From a virus (Duplodnaviria > Caudoviricetes): a stretch of DNA of 64,000 nucleotides. Positions 7,731 to 47,026 of the stretch are shown here, piece after piece (position 1 is the first letter of the stretch; every line of letters starts with the position of its first letter). The notes under the pieces were generated by a model. The model was not told where the DNA came from, did no database searches, and saw only the letters and a program-made list of their open reading frames with translations. The DNA is taken from positions 891 through 64,890 of the IMG/VR virus record IMGVR_UViG_3300019129_000002; one strand, 5' to 3'. The position numbers and the translations under genes were made by a program.

Positions 7731-8562
7731 AACACCTTTACGATACCCTGGGGGTAAATCCCGAGCAATCAAACATCTGAAAGGCTTTCTCCCTTATCTT
7801 GGGAATGAGGAGTTTGAAGAGTTCTGTGAACCCTTTGCAGGTGGGGCTTCGGTCTCCATCTATATTTCTCAACTTTACCCAGAACTAAAAATCTGGATCA
7901 ATGACATCTACACCCCTTTATACAACTTCTGGATTACTTTGCAGCAAGAGCCTATGGAGCTTATCCCCGAGTTGGAAAAGATAAGAGTAGAAACTGTCAA
8001 TCTAGAGGATGACCTCCGACACAGGAAGTGTAAAGAGAGGTTCCTGCAAGCCAAGGAAGAACTGGATTCAGAAGATCCTATAGTCAGTGCCATCAGTTTC
8101 TACATCGTTAACAAGTGTGGATTCAGTGGTATGATTACAGGTTTTTCTAAGAGTTCATCCGATAAAACGTTTACTCTCAGAGGAATAGAAAAGCTCTGGT
8201 TAGTAAAACACCTTATCCGAGATTGGTCTATTACCAATCTATCCTATGAGGACTTGCTAACTAATAGTCAAAAGACCTTTATTTATCACGACCCTCCCTA
8301 TGAAATAAACTCTAGTCTTTACGGGAAACAAGGAAGTGTCCATAAGGTTTTCGACCACGTTAACTTTGCTGAGAACTGCAACCTATTCACTTGTCCTCAA
8401 CTAATCTCTTACAATGATACTCAAAAAGTCACAGAGAGATTTTCGGGTTGGCATCAAGGCAGGTTTAAGCATCAGTATTCTATGCAGTCTGGTAAGAAGT
8501 ACCGAGAAAATCAAAAGAAACGTCACGAGTTAGTCCTATACAACTACGAACTGGAGGAATAA
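7723..8562 (+). CDS. dam: Dam-like (D12 class) DNA adenine methyltransferase
   Basis: KTPLRYPGGKSR, EPFAGGAS and DPPY. Confidence 0.9.
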   Translation: MVKTPLRYPGGKSRAIKHLKGFLPYLGNEEFEEFCEPFAGGASVSIYISQLYPELKIWINDIYTPLYNFWITLQQEPMELIPELEKIRVETVNLEDDLRHRKCKERFLQAKEELDSEDPIVSAISFYIVNKCGFSGMITGFSKSSSDKTFTLRGIEKLWLVKHLIRDWSITNLSYEDLLTNSQKTFIYHDPPYEINSSLYGKQGSVHKVFDHVNFAENCNLFTCPQLISYNDTQKVTERFSGWHQGRFKHQYSMQSGKKYRENQKKRHELVLYNYELEE

Positions 8563-18553: not shown

Positions 18554-19603
18554 GTGCAGTTTAAGCAAAATAAATGGAAGTATAATAATGGAGTTATCAA
18601 ATTGACGAGTATAAAAGAAAAGAGGGAAGCGTATAAAACGGACGAAGGGTTTGAGTTCCCAGAATATTTTGAGAAGTATCAAAACGCTGTGGCTACCCTT
18701 TGGAGACCTCAAGAAGTTTCCATGTCCAGTGATGTGAGAGACTGGGGGAACGCCACCCCAGAAGAGAAAACCTTAATAGGAGGACTTCTAAAAGGTTTTA
18801 CTCAGTTTGAATGTATTGTAGGAGACTACTGGTCAGATGACGTGGCACAGATGTTTCCTAAGCCCGAAATCTTGTCTATGGTTAGAGCTTATTCTTTACA
18901 GGAATGTATCCATCAGGAAGCTTATAATCATCTTTCAGATACCCTTGGCATAAACGAGTTCCAGGCTTTCCTTGGTGACCCCGTGGCCCAGAAAAAACTC
19001 AAACAGTTTTACAACTATTGCAATAGTGGTAAAGTTACCCTCGGGGTCTTCTCCGGCGCTGGAGAAGGTGTTAGTCTATTTAGTTCCTTTGCCATCTTAC
19101 TAAGCTTCAGTCTTAGTGGAAGGTTTAAAGGGTTGGCACAGATTATCTCCTGGAGTCAGATAGATGAACAGACTCATAGTGATTCAGGTTGCTCCCTCTT
19201 CCGACAACTTGTTAGAGAAGAAGGAATAACCTTTGAAGAGAAAGTAGAAATCTTTAATGGTTTCAACGCTGTATTAGATAATGAGTTACACTTCCTTCAG
19301 AATGCCTTCCAGGGGAGGGATAAAACCATCAATGGGTTGAATATAGAAATTATGGAACACTACATGAGATCCCGAGCTAACAACCGATTGAGAGCATTAG
19401 GTATCTACGATGAGAAGGACTTCTTCTATGAATACGAGCCGGCATTAGCTTTCAAGGTGAGCGAATGGTTTGACCCCTTATCTACGGGTTCTATTTCTCA
19501 TGACTTCTTTGCATTAACAAAAGAAGGTAGCTCTTACGTAGCGAAACCGACCTACAACTGGGAACTAGTCAATATCGGAAAAATATCATTGGAGTATAGG
19601 TAA
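18554..19603 (+). CDS. nrdB: Class I ribonucleotide reductase beta subunit
   Basis: WRPQEV, ECIHQEAY (radical Tyr), EGVSLFSSF and DEQTH diiron ligands. Confidence 0.95.
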   Translation: MQFKQNKWKYNNGVIKLTSIKEKREAYKTDEGFEFPEYFEKYQNAVATLWRPQEVSMSSDVRDWGNATPEEKTLIGGLLKGFTQFECIVGDYWSDDVAQMFPKPEILSMVRAYSLQECIHQEAYNHLSDTLGINEFQAFLGDPVAQKKLKQFYNYCNSGKVTLGVFSGAGEGVSLFSSFAILLSFSLSGRFKGLAQIISWSQIDEQTHSDSGCSLFRQLVREEGITFEEKVEIFNGFNAVLDNELHFLQNAFQGRDKTINGLNIEIMEHYMRSRANNRLRALGIYDEKDFFYEYEPALAFKVSEWFDPLSTGSISHDFFALTKEGSSYVAKPTYNWELVNIGKISLEYR

Positions 19604-20512: not shown

Positions 20513-22438
20513 ATGAAGACAAGACCAGATTGGTTCACACCCGAGGCGGTTGAGACGGTAAATCAAGGTTACTTATTACCGGGGGAAACAGTAAGAGGGG
20601 CTTTTGAAAGGGTTAGCAAACAGGCATCCAAGGATTTAGGCATTCCAGAAATAGAAGAGGAGATTTTCCATTGTCTTTGGAATGGCTTCGTAGGTTTAGC
20701 TTCACCCGTTTTCTCAAATTATGGTGCTTCTAGAGGAATGCCCATTTCCTGTTACAGTGTGGATGTAGGAGATTCTGTTCAAAGCATTTTCTCTCATTTA
20801 AAAGAAGTTTCCTTACTTTCCAAAAATGGCGGGGGAGTGGGGATTTATTTAGGAAACCTGAGACCTGCTGGAGCCCCTATTATGGGGGGAGGTAAGTCCA
20901 ATGGGAGTGTTAGTTTTGCTCAAGTGTTTGATACTACTTCTAGGGTGGTCTCACAAGGAGGAGTTCGCAGGGGAGCTTTCTCTTTCTTCTTACCTATTGA
21001 CCACCCTGATTTACCTGAACTATTGAGGAGTAAACGTCACGATCAGGGTGACCCTCGAACATTCATCGATTCTAATATAGCTTTGACTGTCCCAGACAAG
21101 TGGATGGAAGAACTTATGGCAGGTGACCCTGAGAAGTTTGAGTTGATGACAGAAATCATTGAAACCCGTATGGCTTCAGGTTCCCCCTATCTTATCTACA
21201 TAGATAACGTAAACAATCAGAACCCTGAGTGTTACAAAGAAAGAGGTTTGAAGGTTAGTACGAGTAATATTTGTACTGAAATTGTCCTCCATACTGATGA
21301 GAACCACACCTTTGTCTGTTGTCTAAGTTCTCTTAACCTCGCACGGTTTGGAGAGTGGAAAGATTTAAGGTTTAAATCCGGTAGATCAGTCCCTCAAGTT
21401 TGCACCTATTTATTAGAAGGTGTCTTGACAAACTTTATTCAAAGAACAAAAAATCAACCTGGAATGGGTCGTGCAAGACGGTTTGCTGAGAAGTCCCGTG
21501 CGATTGCAGTAGGTGTCATGGGTTACCACCTCTATCTTCAGAAGAAGGGTATCCCTTTTAAAAGTGATGAGGCTCGTAGAGAGAACATTCTTATCCACTC
21601 CTTCATCCGAAATGAATGTGACATAGCAAGTAGAGAGTTAGCCACCCTATACGGCGAACCTGAGTGGTGTGAGGGGTCTGGTTTCCGACATACTCATCGT
21701 ACAGCCATAGCACCCACCAGGACTAACTCTGTTATCTGTGGGGCATTTAGTCAGGGTATTGAACCCGTAGATAGAAACTACTTTGTCGTTAAACAGATGC
21801 AAGGTGTATTTGTCCGTAAGAACCCTGTTCTGGAGGGCATCCTGGAAGAGTACGGGAAGAACACGGAAGAAGTGTGGAGTTCCATCAATGATAATGATGG
21901 TAGTGTTTTACATTTGAGTTTCCTTCCTTGGGAAGTGAAACAAGTCTTCTTAACTGCTAGAGAGATAGACCAGACAGAAATTATCCGACAAGCTGCTGAA
22001 CGTCAACCCTACATCTGCCAAGCTCAATCGGTTAACTTATTCGTTAACTCCAACGTTACTGAAGAAGAGTTAATGTATTATCACTTGTTGGCTTGGAAGA
22101 AGAAAATGAAGTCCCTTTATTATTTGAAAGCTAAATCACCCCAGAATGAGAAAACTCCTTTAACTATCATTACTAAGGAGGGTTGCCCGTTCTGTGAAAA
22201 GGCTAAGTTGTTGGCACGGGAGAGGAACTATTATGTAACTGTAATGGACAGAGATGAGTACCCGGCTAAGGAACTCTTGAAGGATGTTTTCTGGAATACA
22301 TACCCTAAGATATTTATTGATGGGAAGTTCATCGGAGGGTATCAAGAACTATTAGAGGTTCAGCATAAAGGATTAGGCAACGTTGTAAACTTAGAAACAG
22401 AGGAAACGGAGGCAGATTGTGTCAGTTGTGAAGGATAA
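20513..22438 (+). CDS. nrdA: Class I ribonucleotide reductase alpha subunit with internal glutaredoxin domain
   Basis: PISC, QGGVRRGA, SNICTEI, APTRTNS, KSLYY, then CPFC...TYPKIFIDGKFIGGY Grx domain and terminal CVSCEG. Confidence 0.95.
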   Translation: MKTRPDWFTPEAVETVNQGYLLPGETVRGAFERVSKQASKDLGIPEIEEEIFHCLWNGFVGLASPVFSNYGASRGMPISCYSVDVGDSVQSIFSHLKEVSLLSKNGGGVGIYLGNLRPAGAPIMGGGKSNGSVSFAQVFDTTSRVVSQGGVRRGAFSFFLPIDHPDLPELLRSKRHDQGDPRTFIDSNIALTVPDKWMEELMAGDPEKFELMTEIIETRMASGSPYLIYIDNVNNQNPECYKERGLKVSTSNICTEIVLHTDENHTFVCCLSSLNLARFGEWKDLRFKSGRSVPQVCTYLLEGVLTNFIQRTKNQPGMGRARRFAEKSRAIAVGVMGYHLYLQKKGIPFKSDEARRENILIHSFIRNECDIASRELATLYGEPEWCEGSGFRHTHRTAIAPTRTNSVICGAFSQGIEPVDRNYFVVKQMQGVFVRKNPVLEGILEEYGKNTEEVWSSINDNDGSVLHLSFLPWEVKQVFLTAREIDQTEIIRQAAERQPYICQAQSVNLFVNSNVTEEELMYYHLLAWKKKMKSLYYLKAKSPQNEKTPLTIITKEGCPFCEKAKLLARERNYYVTVMDRDEYPAKELLKDVFWNTYPKIFIDGKFIGGYQELLEVQHKGLGNVVNLETEETEADCVSCEG

Positions 22439-23825: not shown

Positions 23826-23896
23826 GCTCCCTTAGCTCAATGGTAGAGCAACTGTCTCGTAAACAGCCGACGTCGGATCGTTACCGACAGGGAGCT
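23826..23896 (+). tRNA. tRNA-Thr(CGT), no encoded CCA
   Basis: Acceptor GCTCCCT/AGGGAGC, D-arm GCTC-AATGGTA-GAGC, anticodon loop CT-CGT-AA, T-arm GTCGG-ATCGTTA-CCGAC. Confidence 0.85.
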
Positions 23897-30968: not shown

Positions 30969-31811
30969 ATGACTAAACCCCTTTTTATGTGGGCAGGTGG
31001 AAAGACCAAAAGGATCAAGCATTACCAACCTTTCCTTAAAAAAGTTACCTCTTATTGTGAACCTTTCTTTGGGGGAGGAGCTATGTTCATCCACATGAAA
31101 AAAGAGTTTGGTATAAGAGAGGCTTATATAAATGATATTCATCTTGAAGTCATGGATATTTACCGTACCATTAAATTTGATGTAGAAGGTTTTCTTAAAA
31201 TCCTGGAAGATTTAGAAAGAATCTATATGCCTCTGGACAAAGAGGGGAGGAAGGGTTACTATTACGACCTGAGGAACAAAAATGCCTGGGATTATAAAAT
31301 GTGGGACTTAACTCAACGTTCTGCTATCTTATACTTCCTGATGAGAACCTCCTTTAACGGTATCTACGAACTCAGAAAGAATACAAATGGAAGGTATGCA
31401 ACCTCTTGTGGAAAAGTAGACCAGAAGAAGGAAGTCTTTTCTAGAGAAGTAGTCAGGTGGTGGCATAAGAACCTTCAAGATGTAACCATTACCCACGGGA
31501 ACTGGAAGGAAAATCTACCAGAAGGTGACATCTTTTATTTCTTAGATCCTCCGTACAGAGGGACAAGAATGAAATACGGTACAGGATTTAGTGATCAAGA
31601 TCTGGAAGACCTCTTAGAGTTCGCCAAAGATAAAAAGTCTATGGTTTGCAACCAAGACTTAGGAGATGGATGGTTTGATAGCTACTCCGATGACTTCCAT
31701 ATACATAGATTCCCCATAACCTACACAGTCGGAGTAAAGAAGAAAACGCCCGATGGTTACAAAGCCAAACCAGCTACAGAAGTTCTATTATTACCAAAAG
31801 GAGGAAAGTAA
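30969..31811 (+). CDS. dam: Second Dam-like DNA adenine methyltransferase
   Basis: KPLFMWAGGK, EPFFGGGA, SFNG and LDPPY. Confidence 0.9.
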   Translation: MTKPLFMWAGGKTKRIKHYQPFLKKVTSYCEPFFGGGAMFIHMKKEFGIREAYINDIHLEVMDIYRTIKFDVEGFLKILEDLERIYMPLDKEGRKGYYYDLRNKNAWDYKMWDLTQRSAILYFLMRTSFNGIYELRKNTNGRYATSCGKVDQKKEVFSREVVRWWHKNLQDVTITHGNWKENLPEGDIFYFLDPPYRGTRMKYGTGFSDQDLEDLLEFAKDKKSMVCNQDLGDGWFDSYSDDFHIHRFPITYTVGVKKKTPDGYKAKPATEVLLLPKGGK

Positions 31812-33617: not shown

Positions 33618-34877
33618 ATGGTATTGAGATTAGTAAAAACTCCCATCAGTTGCGAACACTTGTTAGGAACATTCCTTGATGAAAGCCATTTCGATAACTT
33701 ATTCGATCAAGACGTGGACATCATCGATGCCAATACGGGGGAGGTTGCAGTATCCTTTCGGAAAGGTTGCTTAGATAGCTACCACTCCCTCTCCCCTAAA
33801 GCCTTAAAACTGCTCAAAAGTGCCTCCAAGACAATCACATACTCTCGTAATCTTGCTGCTGGCAAAAAGCTTAACACCCGTACTGGTCCAGGTGGTAAAT
33901 CTGGTCGCGAACGTGCAACTCTCGGTGAGGTAGAACTACTCAACCAACTTATTAATAAACATCCAAGTGAAGTTAAGTTTGAAGTCCTCAACAAAACCGA
34001 ACTCAGTGTCTTCCCCTGGTTGAAACCTAAGACTACCGACAACTTCGATCTCAAAGTGTGGGCTGAGGAACTCCGAGCAAATCTGGTTCCCGAACTATGG
34101 GCTACTGAAGCGAAAGCTATTAAGAAGAAATACCTCGCTTCCACTGGTAGAGGTAACGGAGCAGAGTCAGGTATAATAGGAGCCATTGAAAAAACCTCCC
34201 GTCAACCTTACTGTCGTATGTCCTATATCGCCCGTAACAACTGGGAAACCTTCCAAGAGTGCTTCCCGCTGGTAGAACAAATCTCTGACATTTACCTTCA
34301 ATGTTCTCCTAAACAACATGAACTCCAAAGATTAAAAGCTCAGAAAACTGACCCTCGTTATCTTATCGGTGACAGTGTGTTCTCTACCATTACCGTTAAC
34401 CACAACTTCCGCACAGCAGCTCACCGTGACCCCGGCAACTATGGGAAATCCTTAGCACCTTTAGTAACCATTTCTGAAACTGGGTTCTCTGGTTCCTACT
34501 TGGTATTCCCTGAGTTCCGTGCTGCTGTAACACTACAACCTTCAGATTTCATCGTCTGTAACAATGCTCTTTATATTCATGGGAACACAGCCGCCGGCTC
34601 ACTGGATGATGAGCGTATCAGTTTAGTTCTTTATCTCCGCGAAGGTTTAGCGACTAAATGTTGCTCCTATGAAATTGAAGATGCCCGTCAGGAGTTTGTC
34701 TTCCACCTCCGTTCTCAGAAAGCGACTCACCCTTTGTCTACTGGAAACCGTTGGCAAGGGGTATACTCAGGTATGTGGGAAAAAGATGAGTGGTATAACT
34801 ACTTAGAAGAAAAGCAAGGCAAAGAGGCCGTAGATTTTTGGAAAGAGTTCCGTATCCAACAAAAGAAAAATAAGTAA
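33618..34877 (+). CDS. TET/JBP-family 2OG-Fe(II) dioxygenase
   Basis: SGIIG...PYCR, FSTITVNHNFRTAAHRDPGN (HxD), HGNT and RISLVLYLRE. Confidence 0.9.
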   Translation: MVLRLVKTPISCEHLLGTFLDESHFDNLFDQDVDIIDANTGEVAVSFRKGCLDSYHSLSPKALKLLKSASKTITYSRNLAAGKKLNTRTGPGGKSGRERATLGEVELLNQLINKHPSEVKFEVLNKTELSVFPWLKPKTTDNFDLKVWAEELRANLVPELWATEAKAIKKKYLASTGRGNGAESGIIGAIEKTSRQPYCRMSYIARNNWETFQECFPLVEQISDIYLQCSPKQHELQRLKAQKTDPRYLIGDSVFSTITVNHNFRTAAHRDPGNYGKSLAPLVTISETGFSGSYLVFPEFRAAVTLQPSDFIVCNNALYIHGNTAAGSLDDERISLVLYLREGLATKCCSYEIEDARQEFVFHLRSQKATHPLSTGNRWQGVYSGMWEKDEWYNYLEEKQGKEAVDFWKEFRIQQKKNK

Positions 34878-35051: not shown

Positions 35052-35900
35052 ATGAGCTACTACGACACTATTATTATCGATGGGAATGCCTTCTTCTATC
35101 GCTCTCGGTATGCAATTCTTAGAAGAAGCAAAAATGAACTCACTAACCAAGATGGGGTTATCACCACTGGAAGTTATGGCTTTTTGAATAACTTGTTTTA
35201 CATTCTAAAAACTTATGGTAAACCTAAGCATTTAGTCTCAACCTTTGATGCAGGGGGTGGAAACTTTAGGAAAGAACTTGACCCTAACTATAAAGCAGGG
35301 AGGGAGAAAGTTTCTCAGAACCATATCCAAGATTTCAGAAACCTCGTGGACTTTATTCTACCGAGTATGGGTTCTCAAATTTTTATGAGAAAAGGCATCG
35401 AGGCAGACGATATTATCTTCACCCTATCCCTTGATGATAGGTTAGGCAAGACCTTAATCGTAACGGTGGACTTAGACCTTCTAGGCTGCCTATCGGAACG
35501 GGTAGATGTTCTGGTCTTCAACTCTGCCAAGAAAAAGAAAGTTTGGACACTACCTGCCTTTGAGGAGGAATACCGTATTCCAATCACCCACTACCCCGTC
35601 TATAAATCCATTAAGGGGGATAGTAGTGACAACGTTAAGGGTATTAAAGGCTATGGTCATAAACGGGCTATCAAGGTCATTCAAGGTATCGTCTCAGGGT
35701 CTTCTTTAGAGGACTTCTTCTGCCAGAAAGATTTGTTCACCATCTATGGCAATATGAGACTGATGGCACTACAAAACTGCGACCCCCTTAACTTCCCGTT
35801 GCTTCCATTCAACTTGAATGAGGATGCCTTTACCATGATGTGTGAGGACTTCAGGTTCAATACATTTATCAAACGACTAGAAAAAGGAGGTTTATTCTAA
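35052..35900 (+). CDS. 5'-3' exonuclease / flap endonuclease (PolI N-terminal / T4 RNase H-like)
   Basis: IIDGN, FRKELDPNYKAGR, EADD and GDSSDNVKGIKGYG. Confidence 0.93.
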   Translation: MSYYDTIIIDGNAFFYRSRYAILRRSKNELTNQDGVITTGSYGFLNNLFYILKTYGKPKHLVSTFDAGGGNFRKELDPNYKAGREKVSQNHIQDFRNLVDFILPSMGSQIFMRKGIEADDIIFTLSLDDRLGKTLIVTVDLDLLGCLSERVDVLVFNSAKKKKVWTLPAFEEEYRIPITHYPVYKSIKGDSSDNVKGIKGYGHKRAIKVIQGIVSGSSLEDFFCQKDLFTIYGNMRLMALQNCDPLNFPLLPFNLNEDAFTMMCEDFRFNTFIKRLEKGGLF

Positions 35901-36852: not shown

Positions 36853-38778
36853 ATGGAGATTACACAAGTAAACTTAGGGAAGCAACTGTCAGATGATTAT
36901 CTCAAGTATTCCATGTCAGTTATTATTGGACGTGCAATTCCCGATCTTAGAGACGGATTGAAACCTGTCCAGAGAAGAGTCCTCACGGCTATGAAGTGGA
37001 TGAACTTACACCCTGATGCCAAGTATATGAAGTCTGCGAGGGTGGAAGGTGAGACAATGGGTAAACTCCACCCACACTCTTCTGCCTATGGTGTGTTGGT
37101 TAACATGGCTGCTTGGTGGAAAAACAGTGAACCCTTAGTAGATGGTCACGGAAACTTTGGTAGTCCTACGGATAACGCTGGAGCATCAAGGTACACAGAA
37201 GCAAGGTTAACTAACTATGCTTGGAAATATTTGTTAGAAGACTTCTCATTCTGTCAGACTAAACCTAGTTATGATGGTAGTTTCCAGGAGCCGGTAGTTC
37301 TAGAGGCACAAATCCCTAACGTCCTTGTTAACGGATCTTCTGGTGTGGCTGTTGGCTTCAGTACTAACATCCCTACCCATAACTTTCATAACGTTGTTCT
37401 AGCGACCCATAAAGTCCTAGAGGGTAAAGAGGAAGAAGCTCGAAAGTTATTAGTCCCACACTTCCCTACCCAATGTTATATCCACAAAACTCAAGGACTG
37501 GAGGACTATCTCAATACAGGTAAAGGTTCTATTACTATGCAGGCTCGTTTTTACTACGACATCGAAAAACGTGGTGGGAGGAAGAAAGACCGACCTATTA
37601 TTAGTTTTTACAATCTACCTTTTGGAACTGACCCTGAATCAATATGTCAGCAGATTGCTAAGGGGGTAGAGCAAGGTAATATCACTAATCTGGCAGACGT
37701 AAGGGATGAGACAGATAGGGAAGGTATCAGGGTGACTGTAGTTGCCAAACCTAACACGGATTTGGAGGAGTTGAAGAATCAACTCTTTGCCTACACCAAT
37801 CTGATGAAGAACTTTCCTGCTCAGAACACGGTTATCCACAACATGAAGCCCGTAGTTCTACCACCCGTTCAGATTATCAAGGAGTGGTTGCAGTGGAAAG
37901 ATGACAGATTGGTTAAGAAGTTTACTGTCGAACTCCAGCAAATTCAAGATAGGATCCATATTGTTACTGGTTATCTGATTGCTCTTGAGAAGTTGGATCA
38001 AGTAGTAACCATCGTTAAGAAATCTAAAACCCGTGCTAGTGCTAAGAATGAACTGGTCTATGAAATGAAGTTCTCGCAGACACAAGCGGAAGCTATCCTC
38101 AACCTTCGACTCTCCAGCCTAGTTTCTCTGGAAGGGGACAAACTTTCTATAGAGTTCCAGTCCTTGTTAAAAGAGGAGAAGAGCCGGAAGTTGCTTATTG
38201 AGTCCCAGAGTAAGCGAGAAAGTTTTTTGAAAAAAGAAGTGCAAAGGATTATCGAGAAAAACCCTTCCTCCAGCGATTCACCATTGATAGAGGTTAAGGT
38301 TGTAACCCCTAAGACCTCCAAAAAAGCTCCTCAAAAAGGTGTTAAGGCCGTTAAGTATATTCACAAGGAGGTTTCCTCTAGAGGGGTAATAAGCACTGTT
38401 AAGACCCCGTCCAGGAAAGGAATAAGCTTACGGAAAGATGATAAGTTAATAGCCATCAACTCTGAAGGATTGCTCCGGAAACTACCTTCTAACTTCAAAG
38501 GACCTGTATTCCAGTCAGGGAAAATTCTCATGGTGGGTAAAGCTTCTGACATAGAGCATTGTCATTATATGGTGGTCTTTTCCCTAGAGGATGGAAGAAC
38601 CCGTGCTAATGTGATTAAAGGGTCTGACCTTTTGAAATCTTCTTCGGTGGCTAAACAAGGTCTTCCTCCGTTTAAGAAGCTTATTTACTTTGGGGAAGGT
38701 AACTACAAGAACCTAACTCAGAAGGAAGTAGGCATTAGAGGCCCAAGGAGTCAGGGGAAGCTTGTGAAGCTTCGATAA
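36853..38778 (+). CDS. gyrA: Type IIA topoisomerase subunit A (GyrA/ParC-like)
   Basis: RAIPDLRDGLKPVQRR, HPH, GNFGS, SRYTEARL (catalytic Tyr) and AEAILNLRL. Confidence 0.93.
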   Translation: MEITQVNLGKQLSDDYLKYSMSVIIGRAIPDLRDGLKPVQRRVLTAMKWMNLHPDAKYMKSARVEGETMGKLHPHSSAYGVLVNMAAWWKNSEPLVDGHGNFGSPTDNAGASRYTEARLTNYAWKYLLEDFSFCQTKPSYDGSFQEPVVLEAQIPNVLVNGSSGVAVGFSTNIPTHNFHNVVLATHKVLEGKEEEARKLLVPHFPTQCYIHKTQGLEDYLNTGKGSITMQARFYYDIEKRGGRKKDRPIISFYNLPFGTDPESICQQIAKGVEQGNITNLADVRDETDREGIRVTVVAKPNTDLEELKNQLFAYTNLMKNFPAQNTVIHNMKPVVLPPVQIIKEWLQWKDDRLVKKFTVELQQIQDRIHIVTGYLIALEKLDQVVTIVKKSKTRASAKNELVYEMKFSQTQAEAILNLRLSSLVSLEGDKLSIEFQSLLKEEKSRKLLIESQSKRESFLKKEVQRIIEKNPSSSDSPLIEVKVVTPKTSKKAPQKGVKAVKYIHKEVSSRGVISTVKTPSRKGISLRKDDKLIAINSEGLLRKLPSNFKGPVFQSGKILMVGKASDIEHCHYMVVFSLEDGRTRANVIKGSDLLKSSSVAKQGLPPFKKLIYFGEGNYKNLTQKEVGIRGPRSQGKLVKLR

Positions 38779-39473: not shown

Positions 39474-40100
39474 ATGGAAGAACTCCCTATCAGAATCATT
39501 TACCCTATCAATAGAATATTATCCAATCCAAGAGTCCTCCTTTTAGTATGCAACAGAATGGGGGGATTAGAAATAGTCCACCCTGATCAACTAAGAGAGT
39601 TCTTTTACTCCCTAATGGAAATGGATATGCACACACGAGAGATGTATTACTTTGAGGAGTATGACGAAGTTATTTTTGACTTTTATGAAGAAAGTGATAC
39701 TATCAAGATTATGTTTACCACGGGGAGCTTCATGGAAGCCAAGGTTGTGTTAGAAGACCCCGAATCTAGTGAGAAGACCTGGGTGAAGAGTGAAGAAGAC
39801 TTAGTAACCTCTATGGAAATTTCGGGAACCCTTATGTCCCAGATCAGAGAGGTTCTTCCAGAAGAAATGAAGCATGACTTTATTCTTACCAGTTTACCTA
39901 GTCCTAAAAATAACTATCTGATGGATGATAAAGGTAACTACTTTGAAGGGGACTTCAACCTCATTTCTGACCCCTCTAAAGAATATCATTTCACTGCAAG
40001 CCTAGACATATCTACTAACCAATGGGAGACCAACTATGAGCCAAAAGAAGGCACAGAAAGAAAAGAATTTGGGGAAGGAGATCAACAAGTTAGTAGCTAA
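39474..40100 (+). CDS. Hypothetical acidic protein
   Basis: 208-aa ORF with AAGGA RBS. Confidence 0.7.
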   Translation: MEELPIRIIYPINRILSNPRVLLLVCNRMGGLEIVHPDQLREFFYSLMEMDMHTREMYYFEEYDEVIFDFYEESDTIKIMFTTGSFMEAKVVLEDPESSEKTWVKSEEDLVTSMEISGTLMSQIREVLPEEMKHDFILTSLPSPKNNYLMDDKGNYFEGDFNLISDPSKEYHFTASLDISTNQWETNYEPKEGTERKEFGEGDQQVSS

Positions 40101-40692
40101 CGGAGAAAATTTCATCGAACAGTTGTATTCTCTACAAAAAGAGTTTCAGTCTTTTAAAAATGCTGACAATCCTGACTTTTTGGATGATACTAAATTTGGT
40201 GAAGTTTCCACCATCTCAATCTTCGAGGCTTTGATTTACACATCATGTCACTTGGAAGAAGACTTTGAGTTGGTGGTTCGTTCTATCCTTTACCCTTGCG
40301 TTTATGAAAGAGTTTTTTCTCAAGACGAGCAATACTTTCTCCATAAGATGCCAGAGAATCCCCCAAAAACTTTGCAAAGACTCTTAGGAGAGGTTAGAAA
40401 GGATATTACTTCTAACCTTTTATCACCTGATAACTTTGATAAGGCACAACGCTTGATGGAATCCGCTATCAAAGAGGAGTTCCTGGTTGAAGTGTATGGG
40501 GCCGAAGACCCTAGATGGAGGGAGGATCAATGTTACGACTTCAAGACAATGAAAGTTTATTATCAGGAAGACCCTACGATTCTTCCTCTCATTTTTGACG
40601 GGTTGGATTCCTACCAACAAAGAAAACTAAAAGTTTCTTTGCAAAATGGTGTCATTTCTTATGTGTCCAGTTATAATAGAAGTGTAAAATAA
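40036..40692 (+). CDS. Hypothetical protein
   Basis: 218-aa co-oriented ORF. Confidence 0.7.
   Translation: MSQKKAQKEKNLGKEINKLVANGENFIEQLYSLQKEFQSFKNADNPDFLDDTKFGEVSTISIFEALIYTSCHLEEDFELVVRSILYPCVYERVFSQDEQYFLHKMPENPPKTLQRLLGEVRKDITSNLLSPDNFDKAQRLMESAIKEEFLVEVYGAEDPRWREDQCYDFKTMKVYYQEDPTILPLIFDGLDSYQQRKLKVSLQNGVISYVSSYNRSVK
40649..40677 (+). promoter_or_regulatory. Promoter GTGTCA-N17-TATAAT for Pol fragment 1
   Basis: Recurrent family; embedded in the 3' end of the upstream ORF. Confidence 0.7.
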
Positions 40693-40702
40693 GGTCAACA
40701 GT

Positions 40703-42478
40703 ATGGAAACTAATCCTCTAGGTTATCCTGTCCTAAACAAAAAGAACGCAAAAAAGATTTTCGGTAACTTGAAACCGAAGAACTTTGATCCCTGGGGTAT
40801 AGAAAATGCTAAGAGAAACCTTAAAAAATTTGGTATTCCTGTCCCAGTTTATTCAGAAGAAGTTTGGGAGGGTGACTTACCCGTCCCACCACTAAAGGGA
40901 GAGGATATTTTCTCTCATTTTGATAATGTAGCTAATGAACAAGTAGGGAGGTTTATAAAATATGGTGACGAACTGAAAAGTAACCGTGTACAAGTTGACT
41001 TTAATCTCTTATATCATAATAACATTTCTCCTTCTTTCAAGACTTTCGTAGATACCTTACTGGACCATGTTAAGGGTGGAGTGTGGTTGAGAGCGGAACC
41101 CGTAGTAATAGAGGACGGTGAGGTATTTCTCTTCTTGGACCATGTTGATACTCCCACGGAACCTGGGTTTATCTTTGACACAGAAACATTCGTAAAGTAC
41201 AAGAACTACCCAATCATCGGGACAGCTTGCTCCCACAAAGCTATCTATCTATGGATTGCTTCTGAACTGTTGGATCCGAGTCTTCCGAAGGAACAATGGG
41301 ATCAGTTCAACTTTATCAATGTAGGGACTGACAACTTTATTGTTGCCCATAACGCAGCGTTCGATAGAACTAGAACTCAGGCGGCTTACCAGTTAAACAA
41401 GCTTGGCCCTGATAACTTCTGGTTTGATACTCAGTCTGCTCACATTGCTGTCAGCGGGTTAGCTTCTGGTCAACGTTGGCTCTACGCTCTAAATGGGAAA
41501 GACCCTAGCTTACTGTCGGCTGCTGAGAAACGTAAGCTCCGTTACAAACCTGAATGGTTAGGAGAAGGTTCTACCAACTCCTTAGTCGAAGTTTATAACT
41601 TTCATGTTGCACAACCAAAGTTTCTACTTAACCCTGACACTAAGTTCCTGGGTGATGAAGACAAGGAAACTCGGGATATATTTGTTCTGTCAGAAACCTT
41701 GCAGGAGATTAAGGATCAACTTTACGTAGCCGTTGAGTACGCTATAAAGGACTCCCTCTACACCCATGAACTCTTCCAGGTGTTATGGGGGAAATATAAA
41801 GAAACGACTCCTTCTAAGATCGCTTTTGTAGGTCATTACCACCTTGGAGCATCTAAGGTTCCCTTAGTCCCTGATTGGGAAGAGTGGAAGGAAGAAGCCG
41901 AAAAGGTGTGGGAGTCTCGTAACCAGCAAATGGAAGACAACGTCAAAGCTATTGCTAAGAAAGAGTTCGAGAAGTGGCAAAAGTCTGTCCTTGACGAGAA
42001 AGCAGGAGTAGTTAAGTATATTCACAGTAACTACCCTAAGTTCATGCCTCTACTCTTCGGTTTCAAGACGATGGAGGAACAAATAGAATTTGTTGAGGAG
42101 TATGCCCACATTGATAAGTTTATTCGCAACTTCTGTAATAAGAAGGGTGAATGGACTTTCAAATGGGTAAAGGGTAGCAACAAGTTTAAACGCCCCGACC
42201 TTGACAAGCATATTCTAAAGTGGTTAGAACTGCTAGGGTTTGACTGGCATCCTAAGACTACTAAGATGATAGATGACGACTCTTGGATGCGTCAGCTTGA
42301 CTGGAAGTTTACGACTACAGGTACCTATGCCTATAAACCTAACTGGTATCGTAAGTTCCAAGAGAAAACTGTTTCAACTAAGAACAGAACTGCACACTTA
42401 TTATTGAGGCTTAAGTGGGATGGAAAGCCTATTTTATTTACCAAAGACAAAGGATGGTGTTTTGATGACGGAAACTAA
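40703..42478 (+). CDS. DNA polymerase gamma-like (family A), fragment 1: 3'-5' exonuclease plus linker
   Basis: ExoI FDTETFV, ExoII HNAAFDR, FDTQSAHIAVSGL, ExoIII YAIKD, and POLG-like LLRLKWDG...GW at the C-terminus. Confidence 0.88.
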   Translation: METNPLGYPVLNKKNAKKIFGNLKPKNFDPWGIENAKRNLKKFGIPVPVYSEEVWEGDLPVPPLKGEDIFSHFDNVANEQVGRFIKYGDELKSNRVQVDFNLLYHNNISPSFKTFVDTLLDHVKGGVWLRAEPVVIEDGEVFLFLDHVDTPTEPGFIFDTETFVKYKNYPIIGTACSHKAIYLWIASELLDPSLPKEQWDQFNFINVGTDNFIVAHNAAFDRTRTQAAYQLNKLGPDNFWFDTQSAHIAVSGLASGQRWLYALNGKDPSLLSAAEKRKLRYKPEWLGEGSTNSLVEVYNFHVAQPKFLLNPDTKFLGDEDKETRDIFVLSETLQEIKDQLYVAVEYAIKDSLYTHELFQVLWGKYKETTPSKIAFVGHYHLGASKVPLVPDWEEWKEEAEKVWESRNQQMEDNVKAIAKKEFEKWQKSVLDEKAGVVKYIHSNYPKFMPLLFGFKTMEEQIEFVEEYAHIDKFIRNFCNKKGEWTFKWVKGSNKFKRPDLDKHILKWLELLGFDWHPKTTKMIDDDSWMRQLDWKFTTTGTYAYKPNWYRKFQEKTVSTKNRTAHLLLRLKWDGKPILFTKDKGWCFDDGN

Positions 42479-43043
42479 AAAGGAATGTATCCTCCAGATA
42501 TGTGAGGATTTCGGTTCCAAGTACCCATTCAAAGTCCCTAGAACTGCAAACGAAGAGTCTTTTGATCGAAGTAGAATACACAATCTTAATCGTGATCCTA
42601 ATCAGTATAGTTTTTATCACTGGACCGGGAACGACACAATAAAACTCCCTTACTACTCACTATCTCAACTCTATGTCATCGCCTATAATGAAGCCTTTCA
42701 AAAAGAAAATAGTTTGCATGATGTCAGGTTGGGAGACGTGGTTCTTAGGGTTATTAAGTACGGGAAGAAAGAACCTTTTGGTCAACACTTGGATATCGAC
42801 TATGTTAGCTATACCGTCGCTTCAGTTAAGGATAATGAAGTAAAACTAAAAGGTAACATCCATTATGGACTTCAAGCTGAGAAGGTAGGGTTAGTGAAAG
42901 AGGCAACTCCTCACTATTTTAATCCTGATGGTGCGGACTTCTCTTTCGTCATGTTCTTTAACCTGCACTTTTCTACTAAACTTACAGACTATCAAAACGT
43001 GGGAGAATATTTAAATGCTTGCATCTACAAACACAGAGACTAA
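42465..43043 (+). CDS. Hypothetical protein inserted between Pol fragments (MTETKKE...)
   Basis: ATG overlaps the last codons of Pol fragment 1. Confidence 0.6.
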   Translation: MTETKKECILQICEDFGSKYPFKVPRTANEESFDRSRIHNLNRDPNQYSFYHWTGNDTIKLPYYSLSQLYVIAYNEAFQKENSLHDVRLGDVVLRVIKYGKKEPFGQHLDIDYVSYTVASVKDNEVKLKGNIHYGLQAEKVGLVKEATPHYFNPDGADFSFVMFFNLHFSTKLTDYQNVGEYLNACIYKHRD

Positions 43044-43359
43044 ACGTCTCGAGTTCATTAAACCTTATTTCTCCTTTAGGGGCGGATTTAATACAACTTG
43101 TCGTCTAGGGAAGAAGTGGTTCGACGCACTTAAGGGGGAGAAAGAAGTTCTTCTCACAGGTTATGAAGACCATCATGTTATCCGTGCTGAAGTGGTAACT
43201 ATTTCCTACAAACCTTTCTATCGACTCAGTACTATGGACGTAGCTAGTCACCAATATACTCGGGATTTAAGGAGTTTGGAACGGTTAATGAGGGAATGCT
43301 ATAGTTTGAAGTTCGACCCTGAAACTGCTTTCGTAACACTTGTAGGATTTGATATATGA
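43015..43359 (+). CDS. ASCH/PUA-like domain protein
   Basis: NTTCRLG...AEVVTI...F..L...L..LM..CY...VTLVGF pattern. Confidence 0.5.
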   Translation: MLASTNTETKRLEFIKPYFSFRGGFNTTCRLGKKWFDALKGEKEVLLTGYEDHHVIRAEVVTISYKPFYRLSTMDVASHQYTRDLRSLERLMRECYSLKFDPETAFVTLVGFDI

Positions 43360-43501
43360 ACCAATTTGGAATATTGTTGTTTTCCGGAGTTAGCGTCTTT
43401 TTAATGTGTGTAGTTTTGTTAACTTTTTTCAATAGTTTTACACAAGGGGGTGATTAGATGTTATAATGGTATCATAAGCTTTACGGAGGTAAAGAGCCAT
43501 T

Positions 43502-43738
43502 ATGTCCGACACACATCGTAATGTTCGCTTCGCTAACCTTAACGCTCGTCGGGTTAGCCGTCATTCTCAGTTGAAAAATGTAACCAACGCTATTGAGCAG
43601 ATTACCGAAGAATTCGGAACCGAGATGCTCTATAGTCGGTTACTCAACATAGGTCGTATCCCTAACAACTATGATGACTACCGTGTTAGCGGAGCAAGTG
43701 AAATTTTTGTAGAAGATTGGGAGGAATATTTATCCTAG
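43502..43738 (+). CDS. Hypothetical protein
   Basis: GGAGGT RBS; TATAAT at 43462. Confidence 0.6.
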   Translation: MSDTHRNVRFANLNARRVSRHSQLKNVTNAIEQITEEFGTEMLYSRLLNIGRIPNNYDDYRVSGASEIFVEDWEEYLS

Positions 43739-43876
43739 TTAGTAGTTTCAAAAGCACTTCTTTATCCATACTGGGTATCTTTATCCTATGGGCTTTTGTT
43801 TGGGGAGTTGTGTCCTTGTCACAATCCCTAGATATCTCTTCGGAGAGGGTGGTCAGTATGGAATAGAACCGTTATA

Positions 43877-44158
43877 ATGTTGGTGTCAAAGTCTTTAGTT
43901 GTCATGACACTTTACAAGAGTAAGGAAACGAAGGCTAAGCTCCTTAACTCCACCCGTGTCTATCTTCTGAAGGTTTACTACCTTGCTCAATCTGAAGACG
44001 CTCCTGAAAAGGAGGCAAAAATAGGTCGGGTCTTGTCAAACTACCCTATAACCAGTTATAATGACTTTGGTTACACCGAAATGTTTGAACTAAACCAACA
44101 CACAATGGAGTTTATAGAAAACTATGGTATTGCGTCAAATTCCTCACCCATCGGGTAA
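43877..44158 (+). CDS. Hypothetical protein (start probably ATG at 43904)
   Basis: Promoter at 43850-43878; overlaps the start of Pol fragment 2. Confidence 0.55.
   Translation: MLVSKSLVVMTLYKSKETKAKLLNSTRVYLLKVYYLAQSEDAPEKEAKIGRVLSNYPITSYNDFGYTEMFELNQHTMEFIENYGIASNSSPIG
44033..44062 (+). promoter_or_regulatory. Promoter TTGTCA-N18-TATAAT for Pol fragment 2
   Basis: Recurrent family; lies inside the upstream ORF. Confidence 0.7.
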
Positions 44159-44735
44159 GAAGGGGCAGAATGTTGGGGTTTTACTCTCAAAGGACTTCGT
44201 AAAGGCCCTGGAAAGTGGTCTGTTGAGTTCTGACTACCCTGAAGCTGAGGAAGCTCTTCAAATAGCAAGGGAGACAAGCTACTGGACATCTGTTAGGAAG
44301 AGGGTGTTTGACCGTATCTTCCGTGAGGTTAAAAACCCTTATGGTGAGAATGCTAACATCACTCTCCCTGACATTCTTCCACATGGAACCGTAACACGCC
44401 GAACCGTAGAAAACCTTATGGTTACGATGTGTAGCACCAAAAACTATAAAATAGGGTCTGAGCTAAAAACCCGTATCCAAGCTCCAGATGGTTGGAAGGT
44501 AGTGGGTGCGGACTTTGACTCTCAAGAGTTGAGTATCGCTGGTATCTATGCCGATAGTTGGGAGGGAGGGATAAATGGTTGCACAGCACTAGGTTTCCAA
44601 GTTCTATCTGGTTCCAAGGCAAAGGGTTCTGATGGACACACAGTCTTTGCACGTAACATGATGGAAGAGGAGTACAAAGATCTTTACTTTGATCCAGAAC
44701 TCGGCATCTTAGAAAAGGTTACTATTGATGAGTAA
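44124..44735 (+). CDS. DNA polymerase gamma-like, fragment 2: thumb/palm with motif A
   Basis: IPHPSG..NVG.LLSKDF, SYW, GTVTRRTVE, GSELKTRIQAPDG and VGADFDSQEL. Confidence 0.9.
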   Translation: MVLRQIPHPSGKKGQNVGVLLSKDFVKALESGLLSSDYPEAEEALQIARETSYWTSVRKRVFDRIFREVKNPYGENANITLPDILPHGTVTRRTVENLMVTMCSTKNYKIGSELKTRIQAPDGWKVVGADFDSQELSIAGIYADSWEGGINGCTALGFQVLSGSKAKGSDGHTVFARNMMEEEYKDLYFDPELGILEKVTIDE

Positions 44736-44967
44736 AAGACTTGACCAAAACAACCTTTATCAAATATGCTATCATTATCTTAGAAAATGAATGATAATGA
44801 CCAGGAATATATCTTACTGTCAAATAATACAGGTGAAGACACTATTTCTGCTACTCTTCATATCAAAGGGGCTTGTGATTTAGGTGAAAACGGGGGGGGA
44901 ACCTAAAAAGGATTTTAGACAGATGCGGACTATTGTGAGGATTCTAAAAAAGCAAAGGAGTTCTCAA

Positions 44968-45150
44968 TTGAGAAAGTTAGCCAGAATCGAGAAGATTGAT
45001 GACATCCTTCCCATTGAAAAAGCAAATCGGATTAAGGTTACCACTATTGGGGGGTGGGATGTCGTTGTAAAGGAACGGGAACACCGTGTCAGGGAAAGTA
45101 AAGTTTCCTTCAAGGTTACCTCCAATCTCCACCTCTTAAATGAGGGCTAA
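44968..45150 (+). pseudogene. Internally deleted RNA ligase (DRB0094/Rnl5-like) remnant
   Basis: AAGGAG + TTG start. RKLARIEKIDDILPIEKANRIKVTTIGGWDVVVK (N-terminus) is joined directly to VSFKVTSNLHLL (motif V). Confidence 0.7.
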
Positions 45151-45152
45151 AC

Positions 45153-45182
45153 TTGTCAGATCCCTTACACAAGGGTTATAAT
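45153..45182 (+). promoter_or_regulatory. Promoter TTGTCA-N18-TATAAT for Pol fragment 3
   Basis: Recurrent family; followed by AGGAG RBS. Confidence 0.75.
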
Positions 45183-45205
45183 GTTTATGTAAACCAGGAG
45201 ACAAA

Positions 45206-46021
45206 ATGGATTACCCTACAAAGACCTTAAAAGACGGGACAGAAGTTTATCAAATCAACGGTGAGTGGTATAAAAAGATTGACAAGGAAAGGAAAGCTCT
45301 CCTAAAAGAATATAGAGAGTGTGCCAAAGTCTCTAATTATAGCATTCTTTACGGGGGAGGGGCTTATGCTTCCTCTATACCTTGGAAACAATCTTTCCCT
45401 ATGATGGATCAGGAAGTTCTTTTTAGCAAGCTTAAAAAAGCCATGGTTAAAAAGAAGGGAGTAAGAGATAAGGAAACTGGACATCTCAGAGGAGGTACAG
45501 ATTCCGAAGCTTTTTGTAAGATGGAACAGATTGCTCTGAAAAGTAGGGTTCCCACGTTGCCCGCACTGGGGACTCAAATCACCACGGCTCTAAGACCCAA
45601 GGCAGTAAACAGTGACTTCGTAACGGGTAGGTTGAATTGGGGAATCCAATGTTCCGGATCTGAGTTCTTAGCTATCTTCCTAACTGCCATCCATTGGTTA
45701 GCAGAGGAAAAAGAAATCCCTTGTCAGTTCATCATCTCCATCCACGATGAAATCTGGTTTATGGTTCCCGAAGAGTATGCTTCGGCATTCGTGGTCTTAT
45801 TTCAGATTGCTCACGTTTTTACATGGGCTTACTTCCAAGCTGCTTGTGGGATCTACGAGTTACCTTTGGCAAGAGCTTTCTTCTCAGGTGTGTCATTAGA
45901 TGACAGAGTGAGGAAGTCTCCTTACGAATGTACCAAAACTCTAAGCAACCAGAAAGACGAGTCTGATGGGGAAGAAATCACCATGTGGGACTTAGAAAAA
46001 CGCGGTTGGTTACATGACTAA
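45206..46021 (+). CDS. DNA polymerase gamma-like, fragment 3: fingers/palm with motifs B and C
   Basis: RECAKVSNYSILYGGG, GGTDSEAF, RLNWGIQCSG, ISIHDEIWF and FFSGVSLDDRVRK. Confidence 0.9.
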   Translation: MDYPTKTLKDGTEVYQINGEWYKKIDKERKALLKEYRECAKVSNYSILYGGGAYASSIPWKQSFPMMDQEVLFSKLKKAMVKKKGVRDKETGHLRGGTDSEAFCKMEQIALKSRVPTLPALGTQITTALRPKAVNSDFVTGRLNWGIQCSGSEFLAIFLTAIHWLAEEKEIPCQFIISIHDEIWFMVPEEYASAFVVLFQIAHVFTWAYFQAACGIYELPLARAFFSGVSLDDRVRKSPYECTKTLSNQKDESDGEEITMWDLEKRGWLHD

Positions 46022-46047
46022 AAAAACAAACAGATAAAAAGATTACT

Positions 46048-46269
46048 ATGGTTGTTGAAGTAGGTTCTGAAGTTTTCGTTACTAGTATTAAAGACTATGA
46101 CATCCTTACTATTGAAGACGATACCTTTCGTTTCCAATGGGGTTGTGTTATCAGAAAAATCACCGCCTCAAGTCCAGATAAGTTGGGTAATGTAGATTAC
46201 GAAGTTAAGTATTACGCAAGAATAGGAGAAGCAAGTGCAGAAAAAGATTCTAACGTTCAACGCACCTGA
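46048..46269 (+). CDS. Hypothetical protein
   Basis: Co-oriented ORF. Confidence 0.5.
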   Translation: MVVEVGSEVFVTSIKDYDILTIEDDTFRFQWGCVIRKITASSPDKLGNVDYEVKYYARIGEASAEKDSNVQRT

Positions 46270-46810
46270 TAGAGCAGGTAAATCCACCCTAATCAAAGAA
46301 ATAGAAAGTCTTGGAAAGGGGGTTAAGGTTATCCACCTTGGGCCACCTCAATGGGACTGGAATAACCCTTTAGAAGACATTGAGGGACACATTAAAGAGT
46401 TGCTTGAACAAACTGAGTATAACACCTTGGTCTATGATAGAGGTTGGATATGCCGTCATGTCTATTCTCAGATCCGGGATAAAGGTTTTGATATGCTAAA
46501 CGCTATCAAGTATTTAGAACTCCAGATCCTCCGAAAGAAAGTAGAATGTTATCATGTGATTCTCTACCGTCCTTGGTACTTCTCTGGACCAAAAAACTTT
46601 GAGGAGGTTGACACGACTTCTACCAATCACTGGGAGACTCTCTATAAAATGGAGAGCCGAAGAAAGGAACACCTTGCTTACTATGATTTTGCTTACGAGT
46701 TCTTGACGGAACATTCCTTATTCCCTACAATTGAACTTAGGGGACACCAAAGATTTAATGTGGACGATGTCTTAAAAGGAATGTGGACTTATAAGGAGGA
46801 AATGGCTTAA
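46235..46810 (+). CDS. Thymidylate-kinase-like dNMP kinase
   Basis: APDRAGKST P-loop, IHLGPP and VYDRGW...VY. Confidence 0.75.
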   Translation: MQKKILTFNAPDRAGKSTLIKEIESLGKGVKVIHLGPPQWDWNNPLEDIEGHIKELLEQTEYNTLVYDRGWICRHVYSQIRDKGFDMLNAIKYLELQILRKKVECYHVILYRPWYFSGPKNFEEVDTTSTNHWETLYKMESRRKEHLAYYDFAYEFLTEHSLFPTIELRGHQRFNVDDVLKGMWTYKEEMA

Positions 46811-47026
46811 ATGGCTTTTCCTCCACCCAGGAACTACTCACTACAGATCCAAACTATTTGTCAATGGTTGGACTCTGCACAGTGGGCTCTGGAAGAACTA
46901 AATAATGTTGAACGGGCTAATGAAGACTACTTCTTAGCTTGTCAACTTTCCCGTACTCTCCCCTCCATACCGGAGGAGCTTTTTCGTTGTCTTAAAGAAG
47001 TGGGTAAAAATCTAGAGGATAGATAA
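46811..47026 (+). CDS. Hypothetical protein
   Basis: Coupled ORF. Confidence 0.55.
   Translation: MAFPPPRNYSLQIQTICQWLDSAQWALEELNNVERANEDYFLACQLSRTLPSIPEELFRCLKEVGKNLEDR

Follow-up and report, generated by a model that had tools for sequence, protein, structure and literature searches.

The marine, myovirus-like phage (Caudoviricetes) behind the IMG/VR virus record IMGVR_UViG_3300019129_000002 encodes a DNA polymerase resembling mitochondrial Pol gamma in three separate genes, which raises the question of whether these genes are remnants, parts to be spliced together or subunits of a single enzyme. The window, meaning here the whole stretch of DNA analyzed, comprises 64,000 of the 64,890 bases of this linear record, and the polymerase genes occupy 40703–46021. 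With a probability of roughly 0.7, the locus represents "genes in pieces" driven by homing endonucleases that have since been lost or replaced, an arrangement that would yield a non-covalent three-subunit family A polymerase.

A Pol gamma-like polymerase encoded by three genes

The three genes (pieces 1–3) meet at two junctions, J1 between pieces 1 and 2 and J2 between pieces 2 and 3, and each is preceded by its own promoter:

40703..42478, + strand: piece 1, 591 amino acids; 3'-5' exonuclease domain (Exo I-III) and most of the spacer; its end is junction J1
44124..44735, + strand: piece 2, 203 amino acids; last part of the spacer, then the thumb and the motif A-bearing part of the palm; a hairpin tail forms its C-terminus at J2
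45206..46021, + strand: piece 3, 271 amino acids; N-terminal hairpin head, followed by motif B in the O-helix of the fingers and by motif C in a segment of the palm
40649..40677, + strand: promoter of piece 1; GTGTCA, 17-nt spacer, TATAAT, with GT in front
44033..44062, + strand: promoter of piece 2; TTGTCA, 18-nt spacer, TATAAT
45153..45182, + strand: promoter of piece 3; TTGTCA, 18-nt spacer, TATAAT

In Pfam, the mitochondrial polymerase exonuclease domain PF18136 matches piece 1 (E 2.3e-41), and PF00476 matches piece 3 with 33.9 bits, slightly below the 34.3-bit cut-off. When PDB sequences were searched with phmmer, piece 2 matched 9c51_A (E 1.8e-29) and human Pol gamma (E ~5e-27), piece 3 reached E ~2e-30, and for each of these two pieces all 14 of 14 matches were Pol gamma chains. 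The closest named intact homolog is gp77 of Synechococcus phage S-CBWM1, a protein of 953 amino acids with 42%, 58% and 48% identity to pieces 1, 2 and 3, respectively. Searched against the window with tblastn, gp77 aligns with piece 1 over residues 1–417 and 419–488, with piece 2 over residues 493–684 and with piece 3 over residues 689–936. Because gp77 maps in three consecutive segments, the pieces are colinear and non-overlapping and tile the enzyme, as the initial annotation had proposed for these open reading frames (ORFs); zero residues of gp77 are lost. At J1, the end of piece 1 and the start of piece 2 together have the residue count of intact enzymes, with no extra residues. Piece 2 can be aligned to residues 523–712 of yeast Mip1 and 751–937 of human Pol gamma, and piece 3 to Mip1 717–941. 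It follows from these alignments that J2 lies a few residues ahead of the motif B helix and that one polypeptide carries motif A while another carries both motif B and motif C.

The catalytic residues had been described as intact, and all of those checked fall in invariant columns of 25-row alignments: D159, E161, N217, D221, Y346 and D350 of piece 1 (Exo I-III), D130, D132, Q134 and E135 of piece 2 (motif A), and R37, K41, Y49, G50, H180, D181 and E182 of piece 3 (motifs B and C). The pieces share the exonuclease domain, motifs A–C and the nearest structures (Pol gamma and Mip1) with the Pol-gamma-like PolA enzymes (cluster 2 of PMC10201439), but in place of the single-polypeptide catalytic subunit of that class there are three ORFs, each with its own stop, start and promoter. 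Scans of viral and genome contig collections with piece 2 as a single protein returned zero relatives.

A TTGTCA-N17/18-GTTATAAT promoter lies directly upstream of each of the three pieces. The top three sigma-70-like sites in 40400–46300 are exactly these promoters (11 of 12 matches at 44033–44062 and 45153–45182, and 10 of 12 at 40649–40677), in agreement with the earlier claim that each piece has a promoter of its own. The window holds 31 copies of GTTATAAT versus 2.4 expected; 29 are on the + strand, and most have a TTGTCA-like -35 box. The TTGTCA-N17/18-GTTATAAT element is found phage-wide (e.g., at 2717, 3808, 12378, 23797, 33157 and 34903) and marks many short transcription units on one strand. 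As a side observation, two RNA contigs of sequencing run X19 (see below) start at positions 43474 and 44068, at a distance of 7 and 6 nt past the -10 boxes 43462–43467 and 44057–44062. These starts are compatible with transcript starts, although contigs cannot prove starts, and they were not used as evidence.

Reproducibility of the split and lack of detectable splicing

The same three genes have been recovered many times. Exact copies of pieces 1, 2 and 3 are present on 24, 53 and 31 contigs, respectively, from JGI/IMG, Logan and ENA, the longest of which is 105,697 bp. In clusters formed at 90% identity, 12 of 15, 10 of 12 and 11 of 13 of the members read are full-length (591, 203 and 271 amino acids) and the rest are partial; the full-length members share 90–99.8% identity, and lengths are unchanged in all complete variants. 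At least part of the stretch was found in 20 of the 24 sequencing runs listed, all labelled marine. A single 9566-nt contig of the DNA run X5, which comes from a separate study, spans the whole stretch. A single 8205-nt contig of the RNA-library run X1 likewise runs over the whole stretch, unspliced, and in the RNA-library run X19, from another study, the contigs over 42258–42643, 44068–44269 and 44592–45610 are also unspliced. No joint across the gaps, spliced or excised, was found in the contigs of any of the four runs, which include RNA and DNA.

Microcystis phage Mic1 provides the reference for an interrupted gene of this type, since its Pol gamma is reported as ORF86 and ORF85 with a 298-bp intron between them (PMC7156551). 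A cyanophage-type Pol-gamma-like gene is thus annotated in more than one ORF in both phages. The Rfam scan used here, with Mic1 as a positive control, finds a group I intron between these two ORFs (45.5 bits, E 1.3e-9). This match covers the full RF00028 model at 1313–1585 (- strand) of locus L156, its 45.5 bits lying below the gathering score of 50. The Mic1 interruption falls within motif A and, as a group I intron, should allow a single polypeptide to be made. The window, in contrast, has no intron signal: Rfam gives nothing at E<=1 in 40000–47000, and so no RF00028 group I intron core, and nothing at E<=0.1 on the split relatives L007, L030, L103 and L116 described below. Neither intein nor Hint families of Pfam match the three pieces at E<=0.1. 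No direct repeats flank the gaps, the best candidate being 17 of 20 nt with boundaries that do not match.

Phage polymerase genes are classic intron hosts, which favors the idea that the gaps are self-splicing group I or group II introns with ORFs, restoring one mRNA and one polypeptide. The Mic1 gene, interrupted by a group I intron, also speaks for it (PMC7156551; RF00028 E 1.3e-9). This explanation is nevertheless quite improbable for the window, where Rfam is negative as it is in the split relatives, where each piece has its own promoter and a start codon exactly at the homology boundary, with two further promoters in gap 1 (the gap between pieces 1 and 2), and where the RNA-library contigs from two studies are unspliced over all junctions and no joint is seen in the four runs. 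Moreover, the gap of L030 is almost wholly an HNH ORF. Joining of the pieces after translation by split inteins would have a precedent in marine phage genes that are fractured by a homing endonuclease between split-intein halves (Dassa et al., 2009; PMC2677866), but it is very unlikely here: the pieces give no intein or Hint match, J1 has zero extra residues, the tail and head at J2 are short and without the terminal Cys/Ser ... His-Asn signature, and both are kept in the mature-length intact enzymes of relatives. An assembly artefact, or a programmed DNA excision that restores a single ORF, has only the unusual arrangement in its favor and is practically negligible, given pieces on dozens of contigs from independent sources, the 9566-nt contig of X5, the lack of joints and the lack of direct repeats at matching gap boundaries. 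The statement of the initial annotation that intein termini and an intron core are absent has therefore stood up to Pfam and to Rfam with its Mic1 control; the mis-assembly, mRNA splicing and DNA excision that it had named as dangers to its reading were checked, and the assembly proved sound in several sources, with no spliced or excised form in the four runs.

Homing endonucleases at the same break points in relatives

HNH homing endonuclease genes at both junctions in related phages point to a likely cause of the split, which the initial annotation had missed. Among 80 IMG/VR loci, 77 are uninterrupted at J1 and J2 and one spans only J2; the remaining two are L030, with a split at J1, and L007, with a split at J2. 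The 68 metagenome loci, which partly overlap with the IMG/VR set, include two with a split at J1 (L103 and L116) and one with a split at J2 (L087, which is the same contig as L007). The J1 inserts of L030, L103 and L116 measure ~0.6–0.75 kb and are filled by free-standing HNH homing endonuclease ORFs, which are homologous to each other (58–67% identity; phrog_655 E 1e-6). In the J2 insert of L007, an HNH-like motif is in frame with a 155-amino-acid ORF bearing nuclease-type repeats. Compared with known "genes in pieces," the window has pieces in the same orientation that are colinear and tile an intact homolog, and no intron or intein that removes the insert; an endonuclease gene between the pieces is missing from the window but present in relatives at the same sites.

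In several relatives, ORFs homologous to the J1 HNH genes also lie directly downstream of the polymerase gene (L116 2148–2351, L147 1196–1375, L123 2030–2209, L098 6324–6512 and L084 9287–9466), which means that the polymerase locus draws these endonucleases to more than a single site. A further side observation concerns the intact gene of L128, which has 19 additional residues precisely at J1; they may represent an expansion of the loop that is tolerated or the scar of a re-fused earlier insertion.

Pieces with the ends seen in the window are encoded elsewhere in metagenomes. There are stand-alone middle pieces with the same ends (P0004, P0021 and P0036), N-terminal plus middle pieces that end at the J2 tail (P0016, P0017, P0018, P0022, P0025 and P0033), C-terminal pieces with the conserved head hairpin (P0205–P0209 and P0223) and pieces that start at J1 (P0019, P0210 and P0222). 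The same longest contig (7931 bp) is listed for P0004 and P0223, which are 58% identical to the window pieces and whose ends correspond to the J1 start and both J2 ends of the window. Because these two pieces share their longest contig at 58% identity, the three-gene form appears to be common to lineages across a deep divergence. In a tree of C-terminal pieces, the split forms occupy several positions; the intact relatives of basal lineages are unsampled, and no ancestral state was inferred.

Structure of the junctions

At J2, the window pieces carry residues beyond those of short-form enzymes, with a tail of ~26 amino acids on piece 2 and a head of ~35 amino acids on piece 3. Intact relatives are of two kinds: long forms have an insertion of 36–52 amino acids at J2 whose ends correspond to the window tail and head, and short forms are without it. 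Long-form relatives with both halves in one polypeptide are S-CBWM1, L008, L009, L015, L016, L019, L022, L025 and L089. The J2 break of the window falls in the variable middle loop of this insertion, and both hairpins, that of the tail and that of the head, are conserved from one independent split form to another.

An AlphaFold model of the intact L008 enzyme was built from a 27-row alignment, with a predicted local distance difference test score (pLDDT) of 79.0, a predicted template modeling score of 0.78 and block pLDDT values of 72–86 in the junction stretches. The model places J1 in the turn between strands 491–495 and 501–503, and J2 in the loop 697–706, between a hairpin formed by 684–687 and 691–696 and another formed by 707–709 and 712–716, with these hairpins directly ahead of the motif B helix (719–740). 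Both breaks are thus predicted at beta-hairpin turns or loops. The initial annotation had suggested that the extra residues at J2 are a docking beta-module. They are not specific to split enzymes, since intact long forms carry both halves; the docking idea stands in a refined form, with hairpins conserved among split forms and two adjacent beta-hairpins predicted in the L008 model. When residues 67–591 of piece 1 were modeled in complex with pieces 2 and 3, the complex-prediction score with piece 2 as partner was 0.86 three times, compared with 0.70 in a control with chain 1 replaced. These scores gave no verdict and count neither for nor against binding; halves of a known fold may also score high by likeness to solved Pol gamma structures.

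Constraint on the three pieces

Rates of change were compared in per-region trees (FastTree, LG+gamma) cut at the junctions and rooted with S-TIM5 as the outgroup. The trees include 62 intact genes, which were left after genes at least 95% identical had been removed from 105 full-length loci plus S-CBWM1, and partial loci were left out; together with the L007 and L030 pieces, these give 64 other tips. The root-to-tip distances of window pieces 1–3 are 2.617, 1.403 and 2.434, versus means of 2.753, 1.670 and 2.499 for the other tips (z = -1.0, -3.8 and -0.5), and the window pieces therefore show no rate acceleration. Across four sequencing runs, the 3204 bp of polymerase coding sequence contain three single-nucleotide polymorphisms (SNPs), of which two are synonymous and one changes D to E, versus nine SNPs in the ~2.1 kb of gaps. 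Three of the four indels among these runs are also in the gaps, and the fourth is in an A run at the stop codon of piece 3. Judged from these comparisons, the pieces appear to be under constraint, and the relaxed selection that the initial annotation had considered leaves no sign, with catalytic columns invariant and root-to-tip distances at or below the mean.

Proposed origin of the split and assembly of the enzyme

The split, its reproducibility, the lack of a detectable splicing element or spliced form, the constraint on the pieces and the break points shared with relatives that have endonucleases there are observed; from them we infer physical assembly, activity and the historical order of events. 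A Pol-gamma-like gene would have been cut at J1 and J2, the landing sites of free-standing HNH endonuclease genes in related phages. The endonucleases would then have become unrecognizable in the lineage of the window, and the gaps would have been filled by lineage-specific small ORFs and extra sigma-70-type promoters. Because of these extra phage promoter copies in the gaps, each piece would be transcribed and translated alone. The three polypeptides would probably reassemble non-covalently, with pieces 1 and 2 together completing a beta-hairpin at J1, and with the C-terminal hairpin tail of piece 2 pairing with the N-terminal hairpin head of piece 3 at J2. Piece 2 with its motif A and piece 3 with its motifs B and C would in this way rebuild a single active site, and the proofreading exonuclease would be contributed by piece 1.

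A different history is conceivable, though we consider it a minority option: the J2 split could be old, widespread and stable, and the hairpins left by an endonuclease could have become the docking module, so that intact long forms such as S-CBWM1 gp77 would be re-fusions that keep the scar. In that case, the enzyme would be a genuinely heterotrimeric family A replicase, and its fingers subunit, with a promoter of its own, could be regulated independently.

Several points weigh against an endonuclease-driven split followed by non-covalent assembly. Neither a homing endonuclease nor a remnant of one was detected in the gaps of the window (best tblastn E 0.04 to 8), and no HNH gene was found on the record; we infer an endonuclease origin of these splits from the relatives alone. 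Because DNA carry-over is possible in RNA libraries and contigs drop rare variants, there may be a minor spliced form. The tail and head need not have arisen for docking, because they are present in intact enzymes too. Finally, the contigs that carry the pieces suggest a whole genome of ~100–105 kb and hence an incomplete record. Because the record holds 64,890 bp of probably at least 100 kb, a second polymerase may exist elsewhere. An intact polymerase outside the locus had been a concern of the initial annotation; no other family A, family B or Pol III alpha polymerase is present on the 64,890-bp record, which settles the matter for the record and not for the genome beyond it.

With at most ~60% of the genome in hand, and given that gene fragmentation often precedes gene loss, the pieces might be a decaying or non-essential remnant, replication being left to another polymerase in the unsampled part of the genome or to that of the host. 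This is improbable in view of the invariant catalytic columns and the lack of rate acceleration, the full length kept by every complete variant at up to 7–10% protein divergence, the SNPs in the pieces, most of which are synonymous and whose density is about a quarter of that in the gaps, and the same architecture in a relative at 58% identity, with strong promoters kept in the window. It is also unlikely, if slightly easier to imagine, that the pieces are functional without forming one trimer, for instance with piece 1 as a transiently associating stand-alone exonuclease and pieces 2 and 3 as the polymerase. S-SBP1-like T7-type phages have separate exonuclease and polymerase genes according to PMC10201439, and splits at J1 only and at J2 only arise independently in relatives; conversely, J1 is predicted to lie within a beta-hairpin rather than between domains, and most of the pre-thumb spacer sits on piece 1.

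Comparison with known systems and significance

The closest parallel is the ribonucleotide reductase of Aeromonas phage Aeh1, described as "genes in pieces" (nrdA-a / mobE / nrdA-b) that result from fragmentation by a homing endonuclease (Crona et al., 2010, PMC3045599); the NrdA tails of Aeh1 are reported to be needed for assembly or activity. As reported for Aeh1 NrdA, the active-site residues of the window polymerase are on separate polypeptides, there are C- and N-terminal tails at the junction, and neither RNA nor protein splicing is involved; both cuts in the window would also part adjacent beta-strands, as judged from the L008 model. Unlike Aeh1, the window has two cuts and three pieces, the enzyme is a family A DNA polymerase, and endonucleases are found in relatives only; in addition, the J2 tails also occur inside intact relatives, and the function in the window is a prediction from the genes. 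A second parallel is the family B polymerase gp43 of T4-like phages, which is described as two genes 2–3 kb apart, once with a GIY-YIG endonuclease between them (Petrov and Karam, cited in PMC2677866). Both cases have a phage replicative polymerase in colinear genes at one locus, with kb-scale inserts able to hold a homing endonuclease, but the window polymerase belongs to another family and is in three pieces versus the two described for gp43.

Within family A, S-SBP1-like T7-type phages are reported to encode the exonuclease and polymerase in separate genes, which was called the first case for PolA (Czernecki et al., 2023, PMC10201439). The window likewise has a family A polymerase in separately encoded and presumably interacting parts; whereas the S-SBP1 split is described at the exonuclease/polymerase border, J1 lies past the spacer and J2 is inside the polymerase domain, between motifs A and B. 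The S-SBP1 case is the sole PolA split that we found in print. The split polymerase of uncultured marine cyanophages is presented as T7-like and not as Pol gamma (bioRxiv 10.1101/325100). Full-text literature searches returned neither a paper on a Pol-gamma-like polymerase divided among three genes nor one on homing endonucleases at J1 or J2. The initial annotation had described POLG-like polymerases as single genes in some cyanophages, and this holds for S-CBWM1, S-TIM5 and A-HIS1/2; the Mic1 gene, with its group I intron, is an exception. The intact enzymes of S-CBWM1, S-TIM5 and A-HIS1/2, as well as mitochondrial Pol gamma/Mip1, have the same motif order as the window but are single polypeptides.

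If the pieces form the replicase, this would be a natural family A active site made from two polypeptides, one contributing motif A and the other contributing the O-helix together with motif C, and with proofreading on a third. For the engineering of split polymerases, the locus would then offer two split sites validated by nature as well as a candidate docking module of beta-hairpins, and it would illustrate how homing endonucleases may turn a single-chain enzyme into a multi-subunit one. With regard to Pol gamma evolution, two defined loops prove tolerant of insertions and breaks in the phage branch. For annotation, "partial" Pol gamma matches of 200–700 amino acids in viromes can be complete genes.

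Contents of the gaps

Gap 1 (42479–44123, 1645 bp) contains five + strand ORFs of 49–207 amino acids, which match nothing in Pfam or PHROG and have no homologs at the related loci, and two promoter-like sites:

42420..43043, + strand: ORF of 207 amino acids; internal ATG at 42465 overlaps the end of piece 1; lineage-specific; no family match
43015..43359, + strand: ORF of 114 amino acids; no family match
43439..43467, + strand: promoter-like site
43502..43738, + strand: ORF of 78 amino acids; no family match
43717..43866, + strand: ORF of 49 amino acids; hydrophobic; may not be a real gene
43850..43878, + strand: promoter-like site
43877..44158, + strand: ORF of 93 amino acids; the promoter of piece 2 lies inside this ORF, which runs into piece 2

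The 93-amino-acid ORF more probably starts further downstream, because the listed ATG falls in the -10 box. For the 207-amino-acid ORF, a large protein collection yields only its own 18-member cluster, and its weak atlas neighbors (score 0.93, 131–139 shared features) are a lead only.

Gap 2 (44736–45205, 470 bp) holds one ORF, which resembles the N-terminal oligonucleotide/oligosaccharide-binding fold (OB-fold) of PHA02142-type RNA ligases:

44787..45150, + strand: ORF with RNA-ligase-type N-terminal OB-fold; PF21189 E 5e-8; phrog_968 E 5e-10

In the window, a G8 run at 44892–44899 breaks this ORF and leaves 88 amino acids at 44884–45150. Three of four sequencing runs have G7 instead of G8, which gives ~120 amino acids from the ATG at 44787, and one run has +4 at 44806 plus -1, which again restores the long frame. 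Because of the G7 in three of the four runs and the compensating indels in one, the ORF is probably a live small gene in most strains that is frameshifted in the window contig.

Other features of the window

A set of DNA-modification genes at 6039–7100, 7723–8562, 30969–31811 and 33618–34877 comprises an amino acid:DNA transferase (PF18724, E 6e-22), two D12-class adenine methyltransferases and a Tet/JBP-type 2-oxoglutarate-Fe oxygenase (PF12851, E 7e-21). Judging by this gene content, the phage DNA may be hypermodified and would have to be copied as such by the phage polymerase. The large subunit of ribonucleotide reductase (20513–22438) has a fused C-terminal glutaredoxin domain (PF02867 and PF00462), and the small subunit is encoded at 18554–19603. 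In the window, just one RNA family reaches its gathering score in Rfam, with a single tRNA gene at 23826–23896 (RF00005, 58.2 bits). A replication module surrounding the polymerase (35052–35900, 36853–38778 and 10250–12223) includes a 5'-3' exonuclease (FEN-like), a GyrA/ParC-type topoisomerase subunit and a DUF5906 protein; in S-CBWM1, a gyrase A gene is also located upstream of the polymerase gene.

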